A stretch of DNA of 64,000 nt from a phage. The notes beneath the pieces are model-generated. The model ran no database searches. It saw nothing but the letters and a program-made list of their open reading frames with translations, and was not told the DNA's origin. The DNA lies in sequence record PZ154897.1; one strand, given 5' to 3'. Each line of letters starts with the position of its first letter. The stretch's first letter is position 1. A program made the translations under genes and the position numbers. Positions 597 through 47,853 of this stretch are shown piece by piece.

Positions 597-3293
597 TCAG
601 CCAAACAGGAAGTCTAACGAAGCTTTTTCCTCATAGTCCATACCTGCCGATTCACACATGCCCGCAAGCGGTTTAACAAACGATTTTTGGAACAAAGTTG
701 AGTAGTCAATCCAAGACAGTACATCAGAACGAATTTCTTTTGGAAGTTCCGTACCCGACGGCCAAGCAATGCACTTATCACCAAATGGATTTCCTTCACG
801 TAATGGAAGAACCATTACCTTATTTCCATCCAAAATTGGAGCTACACCTAAACCATTAACAGCTCGACGATAAGTTAGCACCCCACGAATGTGGAACGGG
901 CATTTAAATCCTGGCCAACCTTTATCATCATATTTCGCTATATCGTTCGCAGTTTTTACTTCAGCAATAACTTTATAGTCAAGTTGACGATATTCTTTCT
1001 CAAAGTTCTTGTAGTATTCTTGGACAGACTCTTCACCTTCCTGAAGAATACGACGAATACTTTCTTCGAGAGCTTCTTGTACTGCTTTTGGTGTTGAACT
1101 CTGCTGAGTTTCCATACCCATGATTTTTAGATGTGGTTCAGCAAATCGTTTATCTTCCATATCATAAACGTTCAGAGCATAACGCTTTTTCGCTTTCCAA
1201 AATCCACCAACACCCTTTGAACCAAGTGGAGGGCAAGAAATAGCTTCACGGTCCATATGCATCAGATGCTCGCGGTTATTCATATAATCACATAACTCAC
1301 GATATGCAACATCAATCATAGGTTCCATCTTTTTCTTACCAAACTGATTCATGAATTCAACTAAATCGTTCTGCTCTTTGAATCGGTCAAGACCAACTTT
1401 TTCAACAACTTTATCTACGCAAACATATACCGAATCAGTATCACCTGCTGCGATGAAATCTTCACCATTAGTTCCACACACTTTATTCAGATACTCATTA
1501 ATTTTACGAGCAATCCACTGAATACCGACTTGACCGAAAATTGTGATAGCAGTAGCATTTCGCAAATCATAGTAACGGAAATGAATATTACCAAGAGCAC
1601 CATAAAGACTGTTAATAAGAATTTTACGGTTCAGTTGATTTGTGTTAGCAAGTGTAGCCGCTTTTTCACATTCTTCAATCAGACTATTGAGAACGGATTC
1701 GGTGTAATTCGATAGTTCATTTAAGAAATCATCATTGAACTTAACATATCGTTCAACTTCTGGTTTAGTTGAACAAGACCCTGCGCCTTTCATAATAATC
1801 TTTTTAATAGCTTCGGCATTCATTTCTTCAGCGAACATTTTCTTTTTCCAATCTTTACGCTGGAAAAATACTTTAGCGATTTCCTTTGGAATGATACCTT
1901 CTTGATGCTTATCATACATCCATCCATTCGGAGAGCAAGAATATTCATCACTCGGTTTAGGAGCTGTTCCTGCAATATATTCATGAATTGGATGAACTTT
2001 AAACTGCCCACGAATAGTCTCAGGACTAATGTTAACCTGACGAATAATGCTAGGATACAGAGACGTCAAGTCAAAACTCATAATATATCGACGAGCAATT
2101 GGTTTAGGTTCAAACACAAATGCACCCGGAAAACTCTGTTTAACGTGCGAACCCTGTTGAGGAATAACCTTATGTTCACCTTTCAATGAGTTAAAAATAA
2201 TAGCATCCCAAGTTTTAATAGGACTCATTACACCAGAAAAAGGCATTTTAGCGTAATAAGACATACTTAAAACTAGATCGATAAACCCACGAATTTTATC
2301 AATTGCTTGAACTGATTCTACGTCAATGATGTTATAACTAATGTATCGTTGATGATTAGTCTCACGAAGTTTATTAATAGGACCATCGTACGGCAATTTA
2401 CCTTTTTTGGTTTCATGTTGAGCAACTGATTCCAAAGAGAACGATGGCAAATTAGTAAATGCGAACTTCTTGTATAAATCTAAATAATCAAGAATAGATA
2501 CGCCATCAATAGAATAAATTTCTTTGCTACCGTACATATTTTGAATTAGTTTAGATTTTACTCGACCGATTGGAGAGAAACGTTTCATACTGCGTTCGCC
2601 GAGAACCATTTTAACACGGTTCATGATATACGGAACGTCAAACCCCTCAATATTCCAACCAGTAAAAATAGCAGGTCGTTTCTGTTCCCAGAGATTGATA
2701 TATTCCATGAGCATATCACGCTCATTATCGAATGGCATATAAATTACTCGGTCAAGAATTTCTTGAGGAACTTCATCACCACCTTCACAGTCAAGCTTAG
2801 CAGCTAACTTTGCATCCCATTTTGATACTGAACCGTACATTGAATTCAACAAATCAAAGACGTAAAAACGGTCGTCAATTGAATCATAATGAGTGATAGC
2901 ATCAATTTCATATTCTGCTTTCATTGGGTCAGGAAATTTATCGCCAGTAACCTCAATGTCACAATTAGCTACACGAACAAATTTTCGGTCATAAACAATT
3001 TCTGAACCATACGTATCACTGATATAAGCGAGTTTAAAATCGTTCATACCGAGAGCTTCGAGACCGATGTCTTCCATTCGCTTCATCCAGTCTCGTGCAT
3101 CTTTCATTGATGGAAATTTTTGAGGAGCGCAATTTTTACCATAAATGTCTTTGTATTTTGACTCTTCCTTACAATGCCTAAACATAGTCGGAAGATATTC
3201 TACTTCGCGAGTACGTTCCTTTCCATTTTCATCAATATAACGTTCAACAATATTATTTCCGACTGTTTCGATAGAGATATAAAATTCTTTCAT
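597..3293 (-). CDS. 43: DNA polymerase gp43 (family B, with 3'-5' exonuclease)
   Basis: 898-aa ORF; N-terminus MKEFYISIETVGNNIVERYIDENGKERTREVEYLPTMF matches T4 gp43 from memory; size identical to T4 gp43. Confidence 0.97.
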   Translation of the reverse strand: MKEFYISIETVGNNIVERYIDENGKERTREVEYLPTMFRHCKEESKYKDIYGKNCAPQKFPSMKDARDWMKRMEDIGLEALGMNDFKLAYISDTYGSEIVYDRKFVRVANCDIEVTGDKFPDPMKAEYEIDAITHYDSIDDRFYVFDLLNSMYGSVSKWDAKLAAKLDCEGGDEVPQEILDRVIYMPFDNERDMLMEYINLWEQKRPAIFTGWNIEGFDVPYIMNRVKMVLGERSMKRFSPIGRVKSKLIQNMYGSKEIYSIDGVSILDYLDLYKKFAFTNLPSFSLESVAQHETKKGKLPYDGPINKLRETNHQRYISYNIIDVESVQAIDKIRGFIDLVLSMSYYAKMPFSGVMSPIKTWDAIIFNSLKGEHKVIPQQGSHVKQSFPGAFVFEPKPIARRYIMSFDLTSLYPSIIRQVNISPETIRGQFKVHPIHEYIAGTAPKPSDEYSCSPNGWMYDKHQEGIIPKEIAKVFFQRKDWKKKMFAEEMNAEAIKKIIMKGAGSCSTKPEVERYVKFNDDFLNELSNYTESVLNSLIEECEKAATLANTNQLNRKILINSLYGALGNIHFRYYDLRNATAITIFGQVGIQWIARKINEYLNKVCGTNGEDFIAAGDTDSVYVCVDKVVEKVGLDRFKEQNDLVEFMNQFGKKKMEPMIDVAYRELCDYMNNREHLMHMDREAISCPPLGSKGVGGFWKAKKRYALNVYDMEDKRFAEPHLKIMGMETQQSSTPKAVQEALEESIRRILQEGEESVQEYYKNFEKEYRQLDYKVIAEVKTANDIAKYDDKGWPGFKCPFHIRGVLTYRRAVNGLGVAPILDGNKVMVLPLREGNPFGDKCIAWPSGTELPKEIRSDVLSWIDYSTLFQKSFVKPLAGMCESAGMDYEEKASLDFLFG

Positions 3294-3964: not shown

Positions 3965-4528
3965 TTACCATTCCAATGCTAGTTTTTTGAGTTGTTTCTG
4001 TTCTTTTACGTTCTTAGTCACTTCTTTCAAAAAATCATCCGTGACTAATCCTTTTAGTTCTTTTAATACTAAAGGTAGTTTTCCGTTTTTAGTAAGAATT
4101 GATTTATAGTTAATTGCATCATTTGTATTAACTTGATACCGTTTAGCAAGTAACTTAATAATCAATACTTCGGTGGAATCTTCAACCAGTTTTGCCCATT
4201 TACCATATCTTTTACCCCGAGGAACAGCAGCCATCAGATAATTAAAATGAGCTTCATCACTTAAACCTGATCCAATTAAATTCATAGCATATACAGCTGG
4301 CATGCACTCTGGAAATTGTGATAATGCATTCTCAACCATGTATTTTGAATAATCTTTTTGAGCAATAGAGCATTTAGTTTTATTATTAATAGCTCCAATT
4401 ATTTCAAAAAACTCATTTTCAGCTTTTTCTTTAAAAGAATCAGCAGCGGATTGGACAGCTGTCCAATCTTTAGAATACCAAGCAACTTGATGCTCGTTTA
4501 ATTGAATATCATCTTCAAATAAGCTCAT
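3965..4528 (-). CDS. 62: clamp-loader small subunit gp62
   Basis: 187 aa from [22 protein letters not shown]...; adjacent to gp44; ORF-track N-terminal extension trimmed. Confidence 0.9.
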
Positions 4529-4529
4529 A

Positions 4530-5489
4530 TCACTTCCACTGCATTTCACATGCCAATTGAATGAAAAGATATGCTAAATGTAATTCAGTATTAGCCGCAA
4601 TTCCATGATACTGGTTATTTTCACCAACAATTTCATACATACGAATAATACTTTGCGGAGTTACGCGTGTATAGATTTCTTCGGCAAGTTTACCTACGAA
4701 CCACGAATAATCAGCCGCATATTTTGGTGCTAAAGCTCTGAGTTGTTTAACATCTTTATTTTTGAGAGACTCAAGAACATCATCAATAGCACCACGATCG
4801 TTAGTAACCAGTGATAAAATACCAGCATCCAAAACACCTTTAGATGAATAACTATCGAGCTCACCAATAGTTTTACGAAAATCAGGAAAATTCTTTTTAA
4901 CCAAAGCTGCTACAACTTTCATATCAGCTATAGCAATTCCTTCATGCTTACAGATTTCAGTCAATCGACGAATCATCTGCTTCATCATTTCAATTTTATC
5001 TTCATCGGTCGGTTGACCGAACGTAATAACTCGACAGCGTGACTGAAGTGGTTTAATAATACCATCAATATTGTTAGCAGTAATAATAATACTACAGTTT
5101 GAACTATAAGCTTCCATAAAGGAACGAAGATGTCGCTGAGACTCTGCTAACCCTGAACGGTCAAATTCATCAATAACGATTACTTTTTGACGACCATCAA
5201 ATGAAGCGGCGCTGGCAAAATTAGTCAAAGGACCACGAACGAAATCAATTTTACAATCTGACCCATTCACAAACATCATATCAGCATTTACATCATGACA
5301 CAATGCTTTTGCTACAGTTGTTTTACCTGTTCCTGGAGAAGGAGAATGAAGAATAATATGTGGAATCTTACCTTTACTTGTAATAGATTTAAAGGTTTCT
5401 TTATCAAAGGCGGGAAGAATACATTCATCGATAGTAGATGGACGATATTTCTGTTCAAGAATGTGTTCTTTTTCATTTATAGTAATCAT
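4530..5489 (-). CDS. 44: clamp-loader ATPase subunit gp44 (AAA+)
   Basis: 319 aa from [22 protein letters not shown]...; Walker [11 protein letters not shown]; Walker B VIVIDEFD; SRC motif (LQSRCRVI). Confidence 0.95.
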
Positions 5490-5523
5490 AATTTCCTCAT
5501 TCAAGTTTTAGTGTAAATTATAA

Positions 5524-5537
5524 AGGGCCGAAGCCCT
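5524..5537 (-). other. AGGGC-UUCG-GCCCU tetraloop hairpin between genes 44 and 45
   Basis: agggc-cgaa-gccct palindrome in 36-bp intergenic gap. Confidence 0.5.
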
Positions 5538-5540
5538 CTA

Positions 5541-6227
5541 TTAAAAATCGTGGGTAGAATCAGCTTCAAGAGCTACTACATAATTCGCATGTTCACCTTC
5601 AAATTTAGCAGCGCCTTGTTTACCTTTTGCCCAGAGAAGAAGTTTATAATTTCCTGGTTGCATTTTCATATTTGCCATATTGATAATGAAATTAAATGTA
5701 TTTTCACCATCATAATCACCAAGAGTCAAAGAATATTTAACACGGGTCAAAGCAGAATCTTCTACTTTGTTAAAACCGTTAATTACAATTTTACCTTCTT
5801 TTACTGTGATAGCAATTGTATCAATCTGCAGACCGCGAGATACACGCAACAGCTGTTGAAGGTCTTCAGCTTTAATTTCAGTAACAACAGATGCTACCGG
5901 GAATGGAATTGGTTTATTAGGAGCAACTACTGTACTCGGATCGGCTGCTGGCCAAAAAATTGTTGAGCGAGCATCAGCAATTTTAATATTACCATCTTCT
6001 GACTGGGAAATTTCTGCATCATCATTAACTAGAGACAGAATACCGAGAAAACCGTTCAAATCGTAAATCGCTACATCAAAATCAATAACGTCAGAAATAT
6101 TTGCTTCCGCATAAGTGGTACCATTAACCGCGCGAGTCATAATAAATTGACCGGATTTAAGCATAATACCGGAGTTAATAGTAGCGAAATTTTTCAAAAT
6201 ATTCAGCGTATCTTTAGACAGTTTCAT
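5541..6227 (-). CDS. 45: sliding clamp gp45
   Basis: 228-aa ORF MKLSKDTLNILKNFATINSGIMLKSGQFIMTRAVNGTTYAEANISDVIDFDVAIYDLNGF...; size/position as T4 gp45. Confidence 0.95.
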   Translation of the reverse strand: MKLSKDTLNILKNFATINSGIMLKSGQFIMTRAVNGTTYAEANISDVIDFDVAIYDLNGFLGILSLVNDDAEISQSEDGNIKIADARSTIFWPAADPSTVVAPNKPIPFPVASVVTEIKAEDLQQLLRVSRGLQIDTIAITVKEGKIVINGFNKVEDSALTRVKYSLTLGDYDGENTFNFIINMANMKMQPGNYKLLLWAKGKQGAAKFEGEHANYVVALEADSTHDF

Positions 6228-6282
6228 GTAATTTCCTTCAATTCAAATGAGATTTAATTTTATAACTAATTTAATAAAGCAA

Positions 6283-6672
6283 TTAACGATTAAAATCAGC
6301 CGCAATTGTTTCCGCAACAAGTTGAGCAGCAACAATTAGACGTTCATCTGCATTACCGCAATATTCATCTTCAAGGCGTTCACCACATGAAGTCATAATA
6401 AATTTAGCACCGGCGTTTAGGGATTCTGTAGTATGTTTGCGCATTAGTTCAATCCATTTATTACTTACTTCACGATCGATAGCTTCATAATACGCATGAC
6501 GAGCAGGTGCAGATTTAATTTTGTTCTGAATAACTTCCATTGCGTTATCAGAAAGAGACAAAACCCATGCTCGACGAATTTTATTTTGGTTTTGTGGATT
6601 TGAATCAGAACGCACGTGTTTTGGCTGAATATCTTTTACATCAACAGTATAATTCACAGTAATTTTAGTCAT
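6283..6672 (-). CDS. rpbA: RNA polymerase-binding protein RpbA
   Basis: 129-aa ORF immediately downstream of gene 45; synteny and size as T4 rpbA. Confidence 0.7.
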
Positions 6673-6681
6673 AATACACCT

Positions 6682-6873
6682 TTAGTCATAATAATCAGTA
6701 ACAGTCCAAGCTTCATTTCTGTTGGACATTATTTTCGTATATTCTGATTTAAATGCATTCTTAAGCATAGATTCAGTAACTATATGCTCTTCATTAGAAA
6801 AATTATTTCTCAGAATATATCGTTTTATTTCAGGAATAGTTAATAGATGCTGTCCAGTTGAATATTCTGCCAC
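6682..6873 (-). CDS. 45.2: small conserved protein (45.2-like)
   Basis: 63-aa ORF in the 45.2 position between rpbA and 46. Confidence 0.55.
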   Translation of the reverse strand: MAEYSTGQHLLTIPEIKRYILRNNFSNEEHIVTESMLKNAFKSEYTKIMSNRNEAWTVTDYYD

Positions 6874-6924
6874 AGTTCCTCCGTATAAATATGTTTATCA
6901 CTCGCTGTATCAAAAGGATATGTT

Positions 6925-7641
6925 ATGAATTATAAACTAATTTATGAAAAGTTAATCTCTAATGCTAAATCTCGAAAACTTGATTGCTATACTGAATCTC
7001 ATCACATTATACCACGCTGTTTAAACGGTAGTGATGATGCTTCAAACTTAGTAGATTTAACGCCAGAAGAGCACTATGTAGCTCATCAACTTTTAGTAAA
7101 AATTTATCCTTCTGAACCAAAATTAGTCTATGCTGCTAACATGATGACAGTTTCTACGAAATACGCTAAACGTAACAATAAAACTTTCGGCTGGATTCGT
7201 CGTAAACTCTGGGAAATAGAAAAGAATAAAGAGTTCTCCAAAGAGACACGAAAGAAAATGTCCGACGCAGTAGCTAATAAAGCAAGACTAACTTGTCCAC
7301 ATTGCGGTAAGTCTGGATTAAGCGGGAATATGAATCGATGGCATTTTGATAACTGCCCAAATCATCCCAATCCTAAAGTTAGACCGCCAATGTCTAAAGA
7401 ACACAGAAATAATATCTCAAACGGGCTTAAAGCAATCGTTCTTGAAGAAACATCCTGCGAATTCTGCGGAATGATAGGCAAGAAATGCGTTATCGCAGCG
7501 CATAGAAATTTCTGCAAGAAAAATCCAAATGGACGCAAGAAAACTGAAAAGACTGGTACTTGCGTCCATTGTGGTAAAGTTACCACTTTCGGAAATTTAT
7601 CAAGATGGCATAATGATAATTGTAAATATAAACCTAGCTAA
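6925..7641 (+). CDS. HNH homing endonuclease (mob-type) with three C-terminal Zn-finger repeats
   Basis: 238 aa; motif [30 protein letters not shown]; three repeats of C-x-H-C-G...W-H/N-x-D/N-N-C; opposite strand to all neighbours; paralog of 51510..52169. Confidence 0.8.
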   Translation: MNYKLIYEKLISNAKSRKLDCYTESHHIIPRCLNGSDDASNLVDLTPEEHYVAHQLLVKIYPSEPKLVYAANMMTVSTKYAKRNNKTFGWIRRKLWEIEKNKEFSKETRKKMSDAVANKARLTCPHCGKSGLSGNMNRWHFDNCPNHPNPKVRPPMSKEHRNNISNGLKAIVLEETSCEFCGMIGKKCVIAAHRNFCKKNPNGRKKTEKTGTCVHCGKVTTFGNLSRWHNDNCKYKPS

Positions 7642-9322
7642 TCTTAGCTAAACTAAATCTACCAACTTTTTCCATTTGAATGTGCTGACCATATTCCTGT
7701 GGGTCATGGTCTTTATGCGAAATTATGAAGAAGTTGGTATCCTTCAAACCATCTAAAATTTTAGCCACATTTTTAATACCTTCAGCATCAAATGCACCGT
7801 CATACACTTCATCAAGAAATAAACAACTTATTTTAACACCTGAAACTTTTTCAGCAATATCACGCCAAGTAAATAAAAGAGCAATATCAATTCGTGCTTT
7901 TTCACCTTGACTAAATGAAGCATAACTAAAATCTTCACGACCACGGGATTTAATTGTCTCATTAAATTCTTCATCTAATGTAAACACATAATCCGCTTCC
8001 ATTATTTTAAGATAATGGTTAATCTGCTTATTAAATAATGGAATGTACTTTTTAATAATAGCACCTTTAATACCAGAATCTTTGAGCATATCAGTCAAAA
8101 TTCCTCGGTGGTATTTTTCCATTACTAAATTAGTTTTTGTCTTAACAATTTTATCAAGTTCTTCTTGAAGCAGTGCTATTTCATCAGCATGGTCAATAAA
8201 CTCAGAAGATGCTTTTTCTATAGCCGCTTTAACCTTTTTAGCTTTATCTACCGTCGTGATTAGAGATTGCTTTTTATTGCGAATATCATTTGCCAACGTC
8301 TGTTGGGTTTTAATATTATCTCGGTATTCATCAACGAGAACTTTTAAATTATCACGATGTGTTGAAAGCTGTTCAAACGAATGCGTGCATTCAGAAACTT
8401 TATCTTTAATTTTAGAAACAACTTTATCACCGGAACTTAATTGTGACAAACAGGTTGGACATAATCCACCTTCGTGATACATATTAATGACTTTATTATA
8501 CGAGTCAATTTTTGATTTAATTAAAAATGCTTCTTGACCGATTTTATTAAATGCATCAGTCGGGTCTTCATCCAAAACAATATTAACTAATCTTTCATTA
8601 GCTTCTTCTATTTCCGATTTTAGCGTTCTAGCTTCTTTTGCCAAATCATCATACATATTCTGCAGACGAGTAAGGTTATCACCAGTTAATTTTTTCTGGC
8701 GTTCAACGTTATCATTATATATTTTAATTTGTTGGATAATACTATCTTTTTTAACATCAAGCACTTGGTTTTGTGAATTTAATTCACGTATTAGTGCTTT
8801 ATTAAGCTTATCCATTTCAGCTAATGTTCCTACCTCAAGCAGGTCTTCCACAAGCTTTCTTCGCGCAGGGGTCGACAAACCCATGAAAGGGGTATACCCT
8901 GCTGTACCAAGGACAACAATCTGCTTGAAACTGGCATATGACATTCCGATAAGCTGTTCAAATTCTGCTTGGAAATCTTTACTGCTGGCAGATTCATTAA
9001 GACGTGTACCGTTAACGGTGATTTCGAAAACGTTTGGTTTTTGTCCTCTTTTGATATAGTACTTTTTCTCATCATATTCCATCCACAGTTCAACTAAAAG
9101 TTCTTTCTTATTTGTGCTGTTTATTAATTGACCTTTCTTTACATCACGGAATGGCTTGCCAAAAAGCCCAAATGTGATGGCTTCTAACATAGTAGACTTA
9201 CCACCGCCATTTCGTCCAGTAATAAGAGTTTTTTGAACCTTATCTAATTGAATGTCAACTCCATTTTGACCAACTGACATTATATTTTTATATTTTACTC
9301 TATTAAGTTTAAATGATTTCAT
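7634..9322 (-). CDS. 46: recombination endonuclease subunit gp46 (SbcC/Rad50-like ATPase)
   Basis: 562 aa; Walker A GRNGGGKST; long coiled-coil middle; CPTC zinc hook; signature SQGE and D-loop FLDEV. Confidence 0.95.
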   Translation of the reverse strand: MKSFKLNRVKYKNIMSVGQNGVDIQLDKVQKTLITGRNGGGKSTMLEAITFGLFGKPFRDVKKGQLINSTNKKELLVELWMEYDEKKYYIKRGQKPNVFEITVNGTRLNESASSKDFQAEFEQLIGMSYASFKQIVVLGTAGYTPFMGLSTPARRKLVEDLLEVGTLAEMDKLNKALIRELNSQNQVLDVKKDSIIQQIKIYNDNVERQKKLTGDNLTRLQNMYDDLAKEARTLKSEIEEANERLVNIVLDEDPTDAFNKIGQEAFLIKSKIDSYNKVINMYHEGGLCPTCLSQLSSGDKVVSKIKDKVSECTHSFEQLSTHRDNLKVLVDEYRDNIKTQQTLANDIRNKKQSLITTVDKAKKVKAAIEKASSEFIDHADEIALLQEELDKIVKTKTNLVMEKYHRGILTDMLKDSGIKGAIIKKYIPLFNKQINHYLKIMEADYVFTLDEEFNETIKSRGREDFSYASFSQGEKARIDIALLFTWRDIAEKVSGVKISCLFLDEVYDGAFDAEGIKNVAKILDGLKDTNFFIISHKDHDPQEYGQHIQMEKVGRFSLAKIS

Positions 9323-17372: not shown

Positions 17373-17843
17373 TTAATCATGTTTCCACACCCCATCGGTA
17401 TTTGACCAAAGTCGCTGATTATCTGAACCTCGCCACAGCTTTTTGGTTGGAAGATTTTTCTCATACTTCCCATCAATAATAACATCAACATATTTAAGCA
17501 TTTCTAGTTGTTTAATATCTTCAAACTTGTACCCTGTCCACAACCAAATGCTTTTATTTGGATAAAGATTTTTTACAGTTTGAACAATGCAATGAACATC
17601 ATCTCGGTTATCAGGATAAAGAGGGTCACCTCCAGTTATAGTTAATCCTTCTATATAATCATTATTCAAACATTCAATTAATTGTTCTAGTGTTTCACCA
17701 GTAAATGGAACGCCATTTCTAGCATTCCATGTTGATTTATTATAACACCCTTCGCATTTATGCAAACAACCTGTAACGAAAAGAACTGTCCTGCATCCAG
17801 GACCATTAACAAAGCAGCACGGGTATATTCTGTCATAATTCAT
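17373..17843 (-). CDS. nrdG: anaerobic ribonucleotide reductase activating protein NrdG (radical SAM)
   Basis: 156 aa from MNYDRIYPCCFVNGPGCRTVLFVTGCLHKCEGCYNK; Cys cluster CxxxCxxC; start ATG overlaps upstream stop (ATGA). Confidence 0.9.
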   Translation of the reverse strand: MNYDRIYPCCFVNGPGCRTVLFVTGCLHKCEGCYNKSTWNARNGVPFTGETLEQLIECLNNDYIEGLTITGGDPLYPDNRDDVHCIVQTVKNLYPNKSIWLWTGYKFEDIKQLEMLKYVDVIIDGKYEKNLPTKKLWRGSDNQRLWSNTDGVWKHD

Positions 17844-18670
17844 AATAATATCCAATTTTTCCAAGCTTCATCAGTAGAATTACAGCGTTTTAGTATAAGA
17901 TGTCTAGAAACTTTTATGGCATTTGAGCACTTTTTAATTGAATCATATTTAATACCGTCAACTGAAACGGTTTTGCTAGTTGGAGAAATTTTTCCATACA
18001 TTGGATTTTTTGAACCAACTTGAAGTCCTTTTAAAGCTTTTGAAAGCTTTTGTCTAGATTCCAATGACATGGGAGAATTCTTTTTACCTTCAATAATTCG
18101 CTTGCGATGAAGTTCGCGTTCTTCTTCACTCAAAGAATTGTAATATTTTTTAACACCGTTTGATATAGATAATTTATCTTTCTCAGACCGCTCTCCAGCT
18201 AATTTACTTCTAACATCTTTTCGCTTCATAGCTATGCTTACGGCTTTATTTAAATTTGCTTGATGCTCTGGCGTACGTTTATATTTCTTTAAAGCACGTG
18301 AAATAGCTATTTTAGTTTCTTCTGTTCTCTTTTTACCTTTATTTGCTAAACTATTTTTGCGGCGATGTTCAAGTGTCTGTTCATAGGCAGTTCCACCTTT
18401 TCCACCAGGTTTAATATTATATGTATTTTCTTTTAGACAATACTCTTCGGTTACAAGTTCAGCTTCTTTATCATACATTTGTTTTTCATTATCAAAAACA
18501 TGTAAAATTTCTTTATTAAAATTTTTTCTACCATATTTTAATAAAGCGGCACGAATCAATGTTCCTGACCCCATATAACCGTCATTTATGTTATCGGTGC
18601 TATGCGCACCGATATATTCCTTTGAATTAATTATATTTGTTATTTTATAAATTATATAATACCTATGCAT
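17840..18670 (-). CDS. GIY-YIG homing endonuclease (seg-like) with NUMOD-type DNA-binding repeats
   Basis: 276 aa; N-terminus YYIIYKITNIINSKEYIGAHST...YNIKPGG; about half the N-terminal residues match the segB-like ORF at 46478; overlaps nrdD stop and nrdG start. Confidence 0.8.
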   Translation of the reverse strand: MHRYYIIYKITNIINSKEYIGAHSTDNINDGYMGSGTLIRAALLKYGRKNFNKEILHVFDNEKQMYDKEAELVTEEYCLKENTYNIKPGGKGGTAYEQTLEHRRKNSLANKGKKRTEETKIAISRALKKYKRTPEHQANLNKAVSIAMKRKDVRSKLAGERSEKDKLSISNGVKKYYNSLSEEERELHRKRIIEGKKNSPMSLESRQKLSKALKGLQVGSKNPMYGKISPTSKTVSVDGIKYDSIKKCSNAIKVSRHLILKRCNSTDEAWKNWILL

Positions 18671-20480
18671 GTTTTACTCGTTTTACCATTTCTTTCATTT
18701 TACCTAAATTCCATGGAACAACGCTAGGAGTTCCAAGATATCCGCATGTTCTTCTTATTGTGTTCATCTTTTTAGGATCAGTTTCTCCACAAATAGAACA
18801 AACAAATCCGTTTTCAGTAGGAGTCATTTCATGGGTACTTCCGCATGTAAAACATTTATCTACCGGCATGTTAACACCAAAATAATCTAAATGTTGTGCA
18901 GCATAATCCCATATGGCCTCAAGGCCTTTTAAGTTATTTTTCATATCAGGAAGTTCAACATAAGAAATGTGACCACCTGTCGCAATGAAATGATATGGCG
19001 CTTCACGAGAAATCTTTTCAAACGGAGTAATATTTTCTTCTACTGAAACGTGGAAACTGTTAGTGTACCAGCCTTTATCAGTAACATCCTTTACACTTCC
19101 ATATTTTTCAGTATCAAGTTTACAGAAGCGATAGCACAGGTTTTCAGCAGGTGTAGAATACAAGCTAAAAGCAAAACCGGTTCTTTCAGTCCACTGCTTA
19201 AGACGAGTATTCATTTTAGTTAAAATTTCTTGTCCAATATCACGACCAACAAGAATATTCAATTCGTGAATACCAATGTATCCTAGGGACACTGAACTTC
19301 TACCGTTTTTAAATAACTCAATTATATCATCATCGGGTTTAAGACGAACCCCGAATGCACCTTCTTGGTAAAGAATAGGAGCAACAGTAGCTTTAACTCC
19401 TTTTAAGGAACTAATTCTACACATCAATGCTTCAAAACATAAATCAATTCGTTCATTGAACAATTCGGCAAATTTCTGTTCATTGAACTGTGTTCCAATA
19501 TAAGAATCTAGCGCAATGCGAGGAAGATTCAGTGTTACAACGCCAAGATTATTACGTCCATCAAGAATTTCATTACCAGTCGAATCTTTCCATACGCTCA
19601 AGAAACTGCGGCAACCCATTGGAGAAACAGGAATAGATGAACCTGTGATAGCTTTATTGTTCTTAGCCGAAATGATGTCAGGATACATTCTTTTGCTTGC
19701 ACACTCTAAAGCAAGCTGTTTAATATCATAGTTCGGATCGTCTTTATAAAGATTAACACCTTCTTCAACGAACATAACAAGTTTAGGGAAAATAGGAGTT
19801 ATCCCGTCACGACCAAGACCTTTAATACGATTTTTCAGAATTGCTTTCTGAATCATTCGTTCAGTCCAGTCAGTTCCCGTACCAAATGTAATTGTTACAA
19901 AAGGCGTTTGTCCGTTTGAACTAAAGAGAGTATTTACTTCATATTCATAAGCTTGGAACGCATCGTATACATCTTTTTCTGTTTTAGATTGGGCATAATT
20001 CAATGCATCTGCGATTTGCCATTTTTCCGCGTCCTCAATATGTTTCGCATAGGTGCGTTTAACATAAGGAGAAAGTACTTTATCTACATTCGCAAAAGTC
20101 GTTCCACCATATTGATGGGAAGCAACCTGTGCAGTAATTTGTGCCATAATTGCAGTAGCAACACCGATTGATTTAGGAGTTTCAATCTGTGCATTACCGA
20201 GCTTAAACCCGTTCTCAAGCATTCCTTTTAAATCTACTAAACAACAATTAGTAAAAGGCAATGATATACTGTAATCTAAATCATGAAAATGAATTAATCC
20301 GACGTTATGAGCATTTACAATATGGCTTGGAAGAATACTACAAGCGATATGTTTAGAAACAATACCAGCCATTAAATCTCTTTTTGTTGGAAAGACACGA
20401 GAATCTTTGTTGGCATTTTCGGTATTTAATTCTTTATCTTTATTTGAAATAAAATTTAAAACATCTTTCTCTAAAGACAT
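18663..20480 (-). CDS. nrdD: anaerobic ribonucleoside-triphosphate reductase NrdD (glycyl-radical enzyme), intron-less
   Basis: continuous 605-aa ORF; C-terminal Zn-ribbon CFTCGSTHEMTPTENGFVCSICG and glycyl-radical region RTCGYLGTP. Confidence 0.95.
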   Translation of the reverse strand: MSLEKDVLNFISNKDKELNTENANKDSRVFPTKRDLMAGIVSKHIACSILPSHIVNAHNVGLIHFHDLDYSISLPFTNCCLVDLKGMLENGFKLGNAQIETPKSIGVATAIMAQITAQVASHQYGGTTFANVDKVLSPYVKRTYAKHIEDAEKWQIADALNYAQSKTEKDVYDAFQAYEYEVNTLFSSNGQTPFVTITFGTGTDWTERMIQKAILKNRIKGLGRDGITPIFPKLVMFVEEGVNLYKDDPNYDIKQLALECASKRMYPDIISAKNNKAITGSSIPVSPMGCRSFLSVWKDSTGNEILDGRNNLGVVTLNLPRIALDSYIGTQFNEQKFAELFNERIDLCFEALMCRISSLKGVKATVAPILYQEGAFGVRLKPDDDIIELFKNGRSSVSLGYIGIHELNILVGRDIGQEILTKMNTRLKQWTERTGFAFSLYSTPAENLCYRFCKLDTEKYGSVKDVTDKGWYTNSFHVSVEENITPFEKISREAPYHFIATGGHISYVELPDMKNNLKGLEAIWDYAAQHLDYFGVNMPVDKCFTCGSTHEMTPTENGFVCSICGETDPKKMNTIRRTCGYLGTPSVVPWNLGKMKEMVKRVKHA

Positions 20481-21292
20481 AATTCTAATTTATCCTTTTG
20501 AAATTCTTCGTCTAAATATGGGTTCCAACCCATTTTAAACCTTTTGATGAAATTATCAATTCTAAATTTCGGTAAGTTTAAATCCGCAAAAATAGATGAT
20601 TTACTTTTAAAATATGGACCTAAATAATCATATAAAATTTCTGCGTATTTTAACCATAATATACAAGTACCAGATTTAATTGCTCTCGGAGTTTTCCAAG
20701 GTTTTACACCATACATCGGATTTCCACTTCCTTTATGCCTGATAGAAGATGAAATTCCAATTTTAATTTTAGCTTCCTTTGTGTGCGAAAATCCATGATG
20801 TGGATTTTCTTTCCAGTATTTTTTAGAAGCTTCTGATATTTTCTTTCTGGCTAAATTAGTATGATGCTTTCCATAAAATCCATGATTTTTACCTTTATTA
20901 CGATTTCTTTTAATCATGGTTATTGATTGCTTTTCTCTAGTTTCTTTAGAAGGAGAAATACCATACGTTGTAAATTGACCGTCAGCATATGCTAAATTGA
21001 AATACTCTTTATTCCATATATCTTTTTCTATATTCTTTTGAAATTCAGCTTCAATGCTAGTTATTTGTTCATCTCCGACTAATTGAAAATATAATATTTC
21101 AACTTTCGGCGTTTCTTTCAACAGGGCTTTTTGAAATTCGGAAGATGACGAAGACGAATAATAAAATTTACCATTTTTATCAATAATATTCGTTCCGTCA
21201 AAAGTGCAATTGGTTTTACTTCCAATATAATAATATGGCGGGGTTTTAGCATTAATTCTACTAATAAATGATAGTTTATATACTACATTCAT
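20471..21292 (-). CDS. GIY-YIG-like homing endonuclease (degenerate motif) with NUMOD3 repeats
   Basis: 273 aa; VYKLSFISRINAKTPPYYYIGSKTN; repeats NHGFYGKHHTNLARKKISEASKK / HHGFSHTKEAKIKIGISS / GSGNPMYGVKPWK; very AT-rich; overlaps nrdD start by 10 nt. Confidence 0.6.
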   Translation of the reverse strand: MNVVYKLSFISRINAKTPPYYYIGSKTNCTFDGTNIIDKNGKFYYSSSSSSEFQKALLKETPKVEILYFQLVGDEQITSIEAEFQKNIEKDIWNKEYFNLAYADGQFTTYGISPSKETREKQSITMIKRNRNKGKNHGFYGKHHTNLARKKISEASKKYWKENPHHGFSHTKEAKIKIGISSSIRHKGSGNPMYGVKPWKTPRAIKSGTCILWLKYAEILYDYLGPYFKSKSSIFADLNLPKFRIDNFIKRFKMGWNPYLDEEFQKDKLELCL

Positions 21293-21762
21293 TTTAAACT
21301 CTTTCTAAGCTGCTTCTTGAATGAAGCTATTAATTGTGTTTTGGTGTCAGATTCATTATATTCAAATCCTCTTTGAAGCATCTCGGCCATCATTTCCTCT
21401 TTTCCTAAACGAGAAAATTCCTTTGATTTATCTCCAACGAAGTTAGGGTGAATATTATTTTGGGTGTAATCGGATTTTAAATAAGTAAGTAAATTTTCTA
21501 ACCATTCAAGATAATCAACACCTTGTCCCTTTAAGCCAGAACGATTAAATTTGTGCTTCATTTGACCTTCTGCGGCATTGCATAGATTACAAAGCAATCC
21601 ACGTACCTTTCCTGCTTTTGGTCCATTTAATTCATGGTCATGATCGAGGTGATTAGCTTGAACGTCAGGATTTAGTTCTCGTTGGCAAATTAAGCATTTA
21701 CCATTTTGTGCATCATAAAATTTCTGTTTTTCTTCTTTATATAATTTGCCAGTCAATAACAT
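21289..21762 (-). CDS. 49: endonuclease VII (Holliday-junction resolvase) gp49
   Basis: 157 aa MLLTGKLYKEEKQKFYDAQNGKCLICQRELNPDVQANHLDHDHELNGPKAGKVRGLLCNLCN... matches T4 endo VII from memory. Confidence 0.95.
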   Translation of the reverse strand: MLLTGKLYKEEKQKFYDAQNGKCLICQRELNPDVQANHLDHDHELNGPKAGKVRGLLCNLCNAAEGQMKHKFNRSGLKGQGVDYLEWLENLLTYLKSDYTQNNIHPNFVGDKSKEFSRLGKEEMMAEMLQRGFEYNESDTKTQLIASFKKQLRKSLK

Positions 21763-46397: not shown

Positions 46398-46474
<77 letters not shown>

Positions 46475-46477
46475 TAA

Positions 46478-47143
46478 TTAAAATTTCATTTTTCGACCTT
46501 TAAACCATCCTTCTGGAATTGGGTCAGTTTTCTTAATACGTTTAGAAACTTTTTCATCTAATGAATGAATCCACATCATACCAAATTGGGAATTCTTTTC
46601 GCCCTGTTGGTGTTTATTTCTGGCGTGAGATTCTTTCATTTTATTAATAGTTTCAGGAGTATGGGTCTTACCCAAGAAAGATTTAATATTTAAAAATTTC
46701 TCTCTATACTTAGGATTATCCCAAAGCTGTTTAAACCTTTCTGAACCCATTTTACGATATTTTTCTTTAAGGTCTGGGTCGTTCTCAAATCTGGTTTTAA
46801 AAGCAGCAGCCCCTTTTAAGGAAGCTTCTTTCTTTTTATCCAAATATTCTTTAGTGTTTAAATGGTCCCAACCACCTTCACCACCTAATTTCAAATTATA
46901 AACATCAGGGCGCTTTAAAAACTCTTCAGTCACAATATTCTTTTCTGACTCAAACATAGAGGTTTTATCGTCAAAGAACTCTAATATTTCTTTAGAGAAA
47001 TTTTCTATACCATACTTGTCTTGGGCTCTTTTTAATAATTTACCAGAACCCATATATCCATCATCTAAATTTTCGGTAGAATGAGCGCCTATATAGATTT
47101 TATTATTAATTTTATTTGTTATTTTATAAGTGTAATGGAACAT
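46478..47143 (-). CDS. segB: GIY-YIG homing endonuclease in the tRNA cluster (segB-like)
   Basis: 221 aa; YTYKITNKINNKIYIGAHST...YNLKLGGEGG; paralog of 17840..18670; sits between tRNA subclusters as T4 segB does. Confidence 0.8.
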   Translation of the reverse strand: MFHYTYKITNKINNKIYIGAHSTENLDDGYMGSGKLLKRAQDKYGIENFSKEILEFFDDKTSMFESEKNIVTEEFLKRPDVYNLKLGGEGGWDHLNTKEYLDKKKEASLKGAAAFKTRFENDPDLKEKYRKMGSERFKQLWDNPKYREKFLNIKSFLGKTHTPETINKMKESHARNKHQQGEKNSQFGMMWIHSLDEKVSKRIKKTDPIPEGWFKGRKMKF

Positions 47144-47184: not shown

Positions 47185-47256
47185 TGGCCCTGGGTGGAAT
47201 TGAACCACCATCTGGCGATTATGAGTCGCTTGCTTGAACCTTCCAGCTACAGGGCC
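47185..47256 (-). tRNA. tRNA-Ile (anticodon CAU, AUA-decoding type)
   Basis: hand-folded; anticodon loop CUCAUAA; T-arm GGTGG-TTCAATT-CCACC; acceptor GGCCCTG/CAGGGCC. Confidence 0.75.
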
Positions 47257-47263
47257 TTGATAT

Positions 47264-47335
47264 GCTGATTGACGGAATCGAACCGCCGACATCCTCATTA
47301 CAAGTGAGGTGCTCTACCTACTGAGCTAAATCAGC
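47264..47335 (-). tRNA. tRNA-Thr (anticodon UGU)
   Basis: hand-folded; anticodon arm CCTCA-CTTGTAA-TGAGG; acceptor GCTGATT/AATCAGC. Confidence 0.8.
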
Positions 47336-47342
47336 GAAATTA

Positions 47343-47429
47343 CGGAGGCGATAGGATTTGAACCTATGAGTCACCGGAGCGACTGCCGGTTTTCAAGACC
47401 GGTGCATTAAACCACTCTGCCACGCCTCC
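47343..47429 (-). tRNA. tRNA-Ser (anticodon UGA), long variable arm
   Basis: hand-folded; anticodon arm CCGGT-CTTGAAA-ACCGG; acceptor GGAGGCG/CGCCTCC; 87 nt. Confidence 0.8.
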
Positions 47430-47431
47430 AG

Positions 47432-47505
47432 TCTCCGCGGCAGGATTTGAACCTGTGACATTCTGCTCCCAAAGCAGACGCTCTACCAAACTGAGCTACA
47501 CGGAG
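47432..47505 (-). tRNA. tRNA-Pro (anticodon UGG)
   Basis: hand-folded; anticodon arm TCTGC-TTTGGGA-GCAGA; 2-nt spacer to tRNA-Ser (dimeric precursor arrangement). Confidence 0.8.
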
Positions 47506-47517
47506 TAAATTAAATTT

Positions 47518-47589
<72 letters not shown>

Positions 47590-47595
47590 AAACTT

Positions 47596-47682
47596 TGGTA
47601 CGAGAAGTGGGACTCGAACCCACAAGGAAATCATTCCGCAGCATTTTAAGTGCTGTGCCTTTACCAATTTGACCATTCTCGC
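47596..47682 (-). tRNA. tRNA-Leu (anticodon UAA), long variable arm, CCA encoded
   Basis: hand-folded; anticodon arm CAGCA-CTTAAAA-TGCTG; T-arm GTGGG-TTCGAGT-CCCAC. Confidence 0.8.
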
Positions 47683-47683
47683 G

Positions 47684-47755
47684 CGGGGAATAAAGGACTC
47701 GAACCTTTGCATCTAGCAGTCAAAGTGCTATGCCTTACCAACTTGGCTAATTCCC
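47684..47755 (-). tRNA. tRNA-Gln (anticodon UUG)
   Basis: hand-folded; anticodon arm TAGCA-CTTTGAC-TGCTA; T-arm AAAGG-TTCGAGT-CCTTT; weak 1:72 pair. Confidence 0.75.
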
Positions 47756-47853
47756 AATTATTAACAAAGGCTCTCTAACAAGAACCCTTGATGATAGAGG
47801 GTATTAATCAGTGCGATATGAGTTAATAATAACAAATAATTCTTAAAGCATAT

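Follow-up and report, generated by a model that had tools for sequence, protein, structure and literature searches.

Two free-standing GIY-YIG-type endonuclease genes, each linked to a variant end of an intron-less phage nrdD

The nrdD locus and described homing systems

Promoter-less free-standing endonuclease genes that overlap their neighbours have been described in phage T4; their cleavage sites are distant from the genes themselves, and nrdD and nrdG are among the targets of seg and mob enzymes (PMC2988022). SegG (formerly 32.1; Liu et al. 2003, J Mol Biol 334:13) is listed there as an active enzyme; its gene lies upstream of gene 32, within which the enzyme cuts at a long distance from the place where segG is inserted (PMC2988022, Table 1 and text). 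Together with SegF, SegE and SegB, it represents intron-less homing with marker exclusion, in which a sporadically distributed gene occupies a fixed site, has co-converted flanks and overlaps the upstream gene in a way that suggests weak coupled translation (PMC2988022). T4 nrdD is itself a recurrent target, with mobile elements both inside it (a group I intron containing I-TevII) and at its 3' junction (mobC) (PMC2988022). SegH receives a one-line mention in the same review (PMC2988022). The locus described here, in a stretch of 64,000 nucleotides of phage DNA (PZ154897.1; the window, whose coordinates are used throughout), resembles these systems in having mobile genes at nrdD, one at each end. 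All genes at the locus lie on the minus strand:

17373-17843, minus strand: nrdG, the NrdD activase (Pfam Fer4_12, E 4e-48), downstream neighbour
17840-18670, minus strand: segH (276 aa), free-standing homing endonuclease gene of the GIY-YIG type
18663-20480, minus strand: nrdD, anaerobic ribonucleoside-triphosphate reductase, 605 codons, continuous and without intron
18663-18726, minus strand: final 64 nt of nrdD, a 3' variant linked to segH
19942-19949, minus strand: equivalent of the insertion site of the T4 nrdD group I intron, empty here
20256-20480, minus strand: diverged 5' tract of nrdD linked to the upstream endonuclease gene, nt 1 to ~225, codons 1-75
20471-21292, minus strand: upstream SegG-family endonuclease gene, free-standing, GIY-YIG, 273 aa
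21289-21762, minus strand: gene 49, endonuclease VII (Pfam Endonuclease_7, E 5e-22; Endonuc-dimeris, E 1.5e-33), upstream neighbour

This layout bears out an earlier note on the same DNA, which had described an intron-less nrdD of 605 aa between two free-standing homing endonuclease genes of the GIY-YIG type that overlap their neighbours at starts and stops. The nrdD frame is uninterrupted (Pfam NRDD, E 2e-170; Gly_radical, E 1e-24), and direct reading of the sequence gave the same overlaps: 8 nt between the nrdD stop and the segH start, 4 nt (ATGA) between the segH stop and the nrdG start, and 10 nt between the stop of the upstream endonuclease gene and the nrdD start. Another ATGA overlap of 4 nt, absent from that note, joins the TGA of gene 49 to the ATG of the upstream endonuclease gene. 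Many phage genomes in GenBank annotate these ORFs with identical overlaps. The nrdG start is the ATG at 17843, matching T4 and PP01, while the mechanical ORF list begins the gene at a TTG at 17864. In endonuclease-free genomes the nrdD ATG sits exactly at the gene 49 ATGA, the place that is taken here by the ATG of the upstream endonuclease gene; both endonuclease genes are inserted exactly where neighbouring genes otherwise overlap at ATGA. NUMOD3, previously noticed in the upstream protein, was found in both endonuclease proteins (Pfam, E 3e-8 and 6e-7).

Alignments to the intron-containing loci of Lv5cm, SYGD1 and T4 break cleanly at 19942-19949, and the presence of an intron in T4 nrdD, with I-TevII inside, was confirmed. 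Among 943 records holding the locus, however, a T4-type nrdD intron occurs in only 27 (mobC was found in 32 records of the phage collection). An intron-less nrdD is therefore the norm, and its intron-less state, put forward earlier as a feature of this locus, is real but not special.

Identity of the two endonuclease genes

The downstream gene had been called 'seg-like', which is correct as to type (GIY-YIG, seg) but incomplete, for by its sequence it is the already named segH. The named segH reference records come from RB3, LZ2 and T6 (GenBank AY262137-AY262139), and the gene is 99.9% identical at the DNA level to RB3 AY262138.2, 99.8% to AY262139.2 and 98.9% to AY262137.2. The first of these, entitled 'Bacteriophage RB3 ... 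SegH (segH) gene', has the same 8-nt and 4-nt overlaps. The encoded protein is identical to PP01 SegH (BBC14414.1) and matches the families phrog_314 (E 2e-60) and TIGR01453 (E 3e-13). With RB3, LZ2 and T6 the locus shares the gene, its position between nrdD and nrdG and both overlaps, and we see no material difference. Sandegren, Nord and Sjoberg (2005, NAR 33:6203) are reported to have found that SegH cleaves near its own locus and homes in mixed infections. In T4 the position between nrdD and nrdG is held by mobC, which encodes an HNH enzyme unrelated to segH, and the T4 intron is missing here.

The upstream protein belongs to the SegG family, as shown by 40% identity to T4 SegG over 126 aa (BLASTP, E 9e-27) and a match to phrog_7504 (E 1e-33). 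It consists of a nuclease domain (aa 1 to ~105), a linker that includes NUMOD3, and a SegG-like C-terminal region, whose motif GWNPYLDEEF aligns with the SegG C-terminus. The modelled N-terminal domain (pLDDT > 90) has a predicted GIY-YIG alpha/beta fold that matches the I-TevI catalytic domain. Across an alignment of 28 family sequences E81 and N99 do not vary and Y5, Y22 and G24 hardly do, and in hhalign these residues (Y5, Y22, G24, E81, N99) fall on Y6, Y17, G19, E75 and N90 of I-TevI. On the other hand, hhalign could not place an equivalent of the catalytic Arg27 of I-TevI anywhere in the SegG family. After the 'GSS' most family members have Lys or Arg (K49 in T4 SegG), whereas the upstream protein has a Ser run (S46-S51).

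The GIY-YIG motif of this gene had been described as degenerate and the gene as possibly decaying; neither statement is supported. The pattern VVY...YYIG is the family-wide SegG motif (T4 SegG has IVY...YYIG), and its spacing of 17 residues, instead of the usual 10-11, is likewise found throughout the family, T4 SegG included. No match to the Pfam GIY-YIG model PF01541 was obtained for the upstream protein at E up to 0.1, but T4 SegG is also unmatched, so that this reflects the reach of the model and not decay. Besides the key residues and the I-TevI-like fold, codon-level comparison argues against decay: of the variant codons 26 are synonymous and 21 non-synonymous, for 158 and 661 sites respectively, which gives a pooled dN/dS of 0.17 (binomial p 5e-8), and the nuclease domain has the lowest ratio (15 synonymous changes, 5 non-synonymous).

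The motifs IVY/VVY...PPYYYIGSK...IEAE...YFNL and a similar C-terminal 'GW(N/I)P...(D/E)EF' region are common to the upstream protein and T4 SegG, and both genes are promoter-less and lie directly upstream of their targets, the target of the upstream enzyme being predicted. The differences are ~60 extra linker residues, including NUMOD3, the Ser run, the presumed nrdD target, and the locus, which is 49/nrdD here and 59/32 for T4 segG. That the upstream gene is an ortholog of segG was rejected on this ground; from sequence and position it is a paralogous member of the SegG family, and the label 'SegG homing endonuclease' that the JK42 record gives it is loose. A literature search found no paper on the upstream protein. 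The gene is uncharacterised, although the kind of element is already known, and the locus as a whole is a tidy but ordinary case of intron-less homing and not a new kind of system.

Distribution and linkage to the nrdD ends

The upstream gene occurs in 50 of the 943 records and segH in 73. In Mosigvirus genomes the upstream gene is 97-98.7% identical to that of the window, while their gene 49 is only ~82% identical; a Moonvirus has a segH that is 91.9% identical, between flanks at ~74%. Sporadic presence at a fixed site, with near-identical copies across genera, is the pattern of homing endonucleases, and both genes show it.

Each gene is also tied to a variant end of nrdD. Among 25 loci, some of them from closely related isolates, the upstream gene is accompanied by the diverged nrdD 5' tract in 14 of 14 carriers and in none of the 11 endonuclease-free loci, with 71 fixed differences between the two groups. 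Over the first 250 nt, nrdD sequences from the two groups share 60-71% identity; from nt 251 onwards they are as similar between groups as within them. The tract ends sharply, near nt 225-250. The corresponding 84-aa N-terminal variant of NrdD reaches 95% identity or more in 49 records and does not exceed 68% in any other phage except OLB35, which has lost the upstream gene by deletion and kept the linked tract. Comparison of the phage collection by way of this variant found no donor of the tract. At the other end, all six segH-carrying loci examined, and also PD112 with its internally deleted segH remnant, have the segH-type nrdD 3' variant, in which the NrdD C-terminus reads ...TPSVVPWNLGKMKEMVKRVKHA. 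The variation begins right after the glycyl-radical motif RTCGYLG, and a variant 5' end of nrdG usually accompanies segH as well. All 18 examined loci without segH end in ...NPNERGFNLGKNKEIMHRVKHQ, 17 of them with none or another endonuclease gene and one, T4, with mobC. With endonuclease-linked variants at both of its ends, nrdD in the window is therefore a three-part chimera. This linkage was missed in the earlier note.

In contrast to the SegF, SegE, SegG and SegB systems, the co-converted flank is here a 30-40% diverged coding piece of the target gene, and carriers therefore encode a chimeric NrdD. A second difference is a relic of the displaced native nrdD 5' end, kept in the distant relative L066. 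In this T4-like metagenomic contig, gene 49 is followed by a remnant of the native nrdD (codons 1-55), a frameshifted ortholog of the upstream gene and then a full nrdD whose first ~237 nt are foreign, and it may be read as an independent footprint of the upstream cassette.

Decay of the upstream gene does occur in a few other genomes, though not in this window. Besides its loss from OLB35, the gene is broken in Manna, Pu-Krd-SF3/SF4 and FL18, nonsense, frameshift and deletion changes all being represented among these genomes, and public records also show nrdD deleted between the two endonuclease genes. Such records represent several stages of an endonuclease life cycle: intact genes, nonsense and frameshift variants, deleted segH, gene loss leaving a putatively resistant site, and deletion of nrdD.

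Proposed cassettes, predicted target and alternative explanations

These observations are probably best explained by two homing-endonuclease cassettes, free-standing and independent of each other, that occupy the two ends of an intron-less nrdD. The upstream cassette would comprise the SegG-family gene and the strongly diverged first ~225 nt of nrdD, and the downstream one segH with the variant final 64 nt of nrdD and, as a rule, the variant 5' end of nrdG. In a mixed infection, as the enzyme families and the comparative pattern suggest, each enzyme would cut the allele of a co-infecting relative that lacks the endonuclease gene. Repair of the break from the endonuclease-carrying genome would then copy the endonuclease gene together with its diverged nrdD end, which would shield the carrier from self-cleavage. 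The 5' tract is thus proposed to be the immunity, or co-converted, segment of the upstream cassette; it could also be foreign DNA that was imported with the gene and is not an immunity determinant.

The upstream gene might instead be catalytically dead and decaying, and survive only because its deletion harms nrdD expression or because breaks that its neighbours make (I-TevII, SegH) allow it to hitch-hike. Such neighbour-driven trans-homing of a defunct endonuclease gene is known for mobE and I-TevIII (PMC2790892), and the missing Pfam match, the unassignable Arg27 equivalent, the Ser run in place of Lys/Arg, the broken or lost copies and the frameshifted L066 ortholog would all be compatible with it. 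We nevertheless consider it unlikely. A dead domain should drift, yet dN/dS is lowest in just this domain; the Tyr, Tyr, Gly, Glu and Asn residues are intact; and T4 SegG, for all its listing as active (PMC2988022, Table 1), has the same motifs and escapes the same Pfam model. Nor is there a constant neighbour to hitch-hike on, because segH is absent from ~40 of the 50 carrier records and the intron from most of them.

Neither endonuclease gene has a recognisable promoter of its own. The locus contains no TATAAATA motif, and its sigma-70-like sites are no more frequent than chance would give (17 sites, against 21.5 expected). One of these (10/12 matches) lies upstream of nrdD in the 3' end of the upstream gene, which also contains the nrdD translation-initiation region. 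Both endonuclease genes are probably read from the 49-nrdD-nrdG transcript, and low-level translation would probably depend on coupling where each endonuclease ATG overlaps the stop of the preceding gene, by 4 nt or 8 nt. The sigma-70-like site and the initiation region in its 3' end, along with the strong purifying selection on the upstream gene and the fact that I-TevI doubles as a repressor (PMC2988022), could also be taken to mean that the upstream protein is domesticated and serves a host-beneficial role other than homing, such as DNA binding that regulates nrdD or exclusion of competitor phages, and that the nrdD 5' variant is itself adaptive. This seems to us quite improbable, since the promoter-like matches do not exceed chance and the gene is carried by only ~5% of related genomes and sometimes lost or broken, which is the pattern of a selfish element and not of a beneficial gene. 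That the flanking ORFs are chance or mis-called frames with meaningless overlaps, such as an AT-rich region (~30-37% G+C) yields in number, has next to no probability and is refuted by strong family matches for both ORFs, reading frames conserved in dozens of genomes and purifying selection at the codon level.

Under the two-cassette explanation, the upstream enzyme is predicted to cut inside nrdD of endonuclease-free phages, probably at about codons 55-79, at the conserved LPFTNCC motif or immediately ahead of it; this motif contains an active-site cysteine. Tentatively, at a little short of an even chance, the upstream gene would encode an active, as yet unnamed SegG-family enzyme whose mobile unit is the gene plus the recoded first ~75 codons of its own target; it would cut endonuclease-free nrdD between about codons 55 and 79, beside LPFTNCC, and make nrdD a three-part chimera together with segH, the gene as a whole being swept between genera in mixed infections. 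The T-even set gains one more experimentally tractable free-standing endonuclease, with a concrete predicted target in nrdD codons 55-79. Both ends of a conserved enzyme gene appear to be swappable as parts of endonuclease cassettes, and NrdD phylogenies and genus-level comparisons (Tequatrovirus, Mosigvirus) will therefore be mosaic at this locus. In another T4-like phage, an intein sits in the LPFTNCC motif.

An uninterrupted nrdD between two endonuclease genes

The window belongs to a T4-like (Tequatrovirus-type) phage genome, and 943 phage records match the 4.5-kb region around nrdD, the gene for the anaerobic ribonucleoside-triphosphate reductase; the best match is Escherichia phage OES_C-3, at 98.0% identity. 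The locus is organized as follows.

Genes of the nrdD locus
21289-21762, minus strand: gene 49 (endonuclease VII)
20471-21292, minus strand: upstream ORF of 273 aa
18663-20480, minus strand: nrdD, a single uninterrupted ORF of 605 codons
17840-18670, minus strand: ORF of 276 aa (segH)
17373-17843, minus strand: nrdG

The earlier note was right in outline: the nrdD that it described as intron-less is indeed one unbroken 605-codon ORF, and the overlaps that it listed are all exact in the sequence: nrdD shares 10 nt with the upstream ORF and 8 nt with the 276-aa ORF, and the latter meets the nrdG start in an ATGA. The gene 49 stop and the start of the upstream ORF also share an ATGA overlap, as read from the sequence. 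Where the note went wrong was on decay of the upstream gene.

By comparison with deposited records, the downstream gene is segH, which is already known. It shares 100% DNA identity with the annotated segH of phage PP01, the two proteins agreeing residue for residue, and 99.9%, 99.8% and 98.9% with the segH records AY262138 (RB3), AY262139 (LZ2) and AY262137 (T6), respectively; the RB3 record has the same 8-nt and 4-nt overlaps. In T4, by contrast, this position is held by an unrelated HNH gene, mobC. The description of SegH is due to Sandegren, Nord and Sjoberg in 2005, who reportedly found segH in place of mobC in three phages and the enzyme to cleave near its own locus and to home in mixed infections. 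A phmmer search of SegH and of the upstream protein against the PDB returned nothing relevant.

The upstream gene and its nuclease domain

Residues 1-126 of the upstream protein share 40% identity with T4 SegG (E 9e-27) and match the SegG PHROG (E 1e-33), its C-terminal GWNPYLDEEF region aligns with the SegG C-terminus, and its NUMOD3 motif (E 6e-7) sits in about 60 additional residues. The neighbours of T4 segG are genes 59 and 32; those of the upstream gene are gene 49 and nrdD. Judged by this homology, it is a member of the T4 SegG family and not segG itself. Its N-terminal domain is modelled confidently by AlphaFold (pLDDT >90). An alignment of 28 sequences shows no variation at E81 and N99 and hardly any at Y5, Y22 and G24; profile alignment places Y5, Y22, G24, E81 and N99 on Y6, Y17, G19, E75 and N90 of I-TevI. 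Both the model and these residues are evidence that the nuclease domain is functional. No GIY-YIG match to Pfam is found for the upstream protein, nor for T4 SegG, which is given as an active enzyme (PMC2988022, Table 1). The motif VVY...YYIG, previously taken as degenerate, is the norm of the SegG family, T4 SegG itself having IVY...YYIG. The single real oddity of the upstream protein is its run of six serines after 'GSS', where most family members have Lys or Arg (K49 in SegG); an equivalent of I-TevI Arg27 could not be placed by profile alignment anywhere in the family. Arg52 of T4 SegG, a Glu in the upstream protein, was considered as the catalytic Arg and dropped because its position is not conserved across the family. 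A literature search on a 49/nrdD endonuclease found no paper on the upstream gene, which is a new, uncharacterised member of the SegG family, although GenBank already labels it 'homing endonuclease'.

Locus L067 (ENA ERZ13617658 NODE_202), at 4001-4822, encodes another 273-aa protein, flanked by gene 5 on one side and a 5.1-like gene / PAAR gene on the other, close to where segC lies in T4. Its SegG-like nuclease domain is 57% identical over the first half and its C-terminal half differs; with only the nuclease domain in common, it shows that domains have been shuffled within the SegG family.

The 14 full-length copies of the upstream gene carry 26 synonymous versus 21 non-synonymous variant codons over 158 versus 661 sites, a pooled dN/dS of 0.17 (binomial p 5e-8). 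Constraint is strongest in the nuclease domain, where 15 synonymous changes stand against 5 non-synonymous ones. With this ratio, and with the copy in the window intact, the gene there appears not to be decaying, contrary to what had been suggested. Disrupted copies exist in other phages: in Manna codon 20 is a stop codon, and in Pu-Krd-SF3 and SF4 1 nt has been inserted. The Mosigvirus FL18 (locus L057, PP400780.1, 2714-4205) has no nrdD at all; through a deletion, only its last 70 nt remain, fused to nt 608 of the upstream gene. Gene 49 is followed directly by the truncated ORF of this fusion, and that by segH and nrdG.

Distribution of the genes and the nrdD ends linked to them

An IMG/VR scan with gp49 (endonuclease VII) gave five close relatives only, and population data were hence taken from individual GenBank records.

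Elements found in records with the locus
Upstream SegG-like gene: 50/943
segH: 73/943
mobC: 32/943
T4-type nrdD intron: 27/943

With the intron in so few records, an intron-less nrdD is the usual state; its combination with both endonuclease genes is found in only six of the 943. As segH is absent from about 40 of the 50 upstream-gene carriers, the two genes are independent. In Mosigvirus genomes whose gene 49 is about 82% identical to that of the window, the upstream gene is 97-98.7% identical, and in one Moonvirus segH is 91.9% identical with flanks at about 74%. On this distribution and these identities, both genes behave as mobile elements.

Several other variations were seen. Escherichia phage TadeuszReichstein (locus L053, MZ501106.1, 947-1786) has at the nrdD/nrdG junction a different putative endonuclease gene, neither segH nor mobC, whose 279-aa protein has weak NUMOD1 / I-HmuI NUMOD-like matches only; at least four arrangements thus exist at the junction (segH, mobC, this gene, none). 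The window itself holds a third Seg-type GIY-YIG gene (46478-47143, minus strand; 221 aa, N-domain 51% identical to SegH), flanked by tRNA-Arg (46398-46474) and a seven-tRNA block (47185-47756), which is the T4 segB position. Around the empty intron site (19900-19990, minus strand), nrdD differs from the T4 exons at several synonymous positions, and its sequence is similar to the exons of Lv5cm, a phage that has the intron.

Genomes free of the endonuclease gene have the ATG of nrdD overlapping the stop of gene 49 (AAAATGA); carriers have the ATG of the upstream gene at exactly that position. A diverged nrdD 5' tract is present in 14/14 carrier loci versus 0/11 endonuclease-free loci, with 71 fixed differences in nt 1-225 of nrdD; up to nt 250 the two groups share 60-71% identity, and from nt 251 they are as similar to each other as loci within one group are. 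Between the same 14 and 11 loci, the gene 49 side has no fixed differences. The 84 residues encoded by the tract are at least 95% identical among carriers, 90.5% in Escherichia phage OLB35 and at most 68% in all other phage NrdD proteins; a tblastn search of all phage records with this variant turned up no intermediate that could mark a donor.

The other end of nrdD shows a comparable linkage. Its last 64 nt, beginning directly after the glycyl-radical motif and encoding ...TPSVVPWNLGKMKEMVKRVKHA, form a variant common to all six segH carriers and to the segH remnant of phage PD112, versus a C-terminus of ...NPNERGFNLGKNKEIMHRVKHQ in 18/18 examined loci lacking segH. A 5' haplotype of nrdG, the gene for the NrdD activase, is also linked to segH, usually but not always. 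With endonuclease-linked variants at both ends, the nrdD of the window is therefore a three-part chimera. The remnant in Escherichia phage PD112 (locus L051, NC_054928.1, 1548-1790), unannotated in the record, consists of segH nt 1-139 and 717-831 with the middle deleted, next to a segH-type nrdD 3' end.

Proposed homing and proposed position of the break

Neither a late-promoter motif nor an own promoter for either endonuclease gene was found within the locus, where sigma-70-like matches are at chance level. In the proposed mechanism the upstream gene and segH are promoter-less cassettes; the 49-nrdD-nrdG transcript probably carries them, with weak translation, again probably, by coupling via the overlaps, similar to the weak coupled translation of segC, segF, mobA and mobC described in a T4 review. 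The analysis establishes identity, fold, selection, distribution and linkage; cleavage, target position and immunity we infer. In a mixed infection the target of each enzyme would be the endonuclease-free allele; with the carrier genome as template, repair would copy the endonuclease gene together with its nrdD end, and the diverged end would protect the carrier against its own enzyme. OLB35 (locus L063, MH992122.1, a record marked UNVERIFIED, 3001-3260) is the 'lost gene, resistant site' stage: the upstream gene is deleted and the linked nrdD 5' tract retained, NrdD starting with MNVVYKL, from codons 1-7 of the upstream gene, and continuing in frame with ...FISNKDKEL.

L066, a metagenomic contig (Logan SRR27536177) from a distant T4-like phage (gp49 64% and NrdD 68% amino-acid identity), carries in order gene 49, a 55-codon relic of the nrdD 5' end native to that lineage, a frameshifted ortholog of the upstream gene (54-66% identity; relic and ortholog at locus 2188-3180) and a complete nrdD that starts with ~237 nt foreign to its own lineage. 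It looks as if a break inside nrdD had been repaired from one side only and in part illegitimately, which would place the break at about nt 165-237. The tract boundary in the clade of the window, at the conserved LPFTNCC motif, agrees with that position. The frameshift corresponds in position to the Ser run of the window's upstream protein.

The motif at which the endonuclease-linked nrdD tract of the window ends is also the site of an insert in locus L040 (IMG/VR UViG 2706796082, 5468-8245), from a distant T4-like phage whose NrdD of 925 aa contains about 300 in-frame residues at LPFTN-C/CLVDL. An intron was rejected, Rfam finding nothing in the insert, which is in frame; with Cys first, an end of ...VVTGN followed by Cys, and a LAGLIDADG-like LIAADG inside, it looks like an intein.
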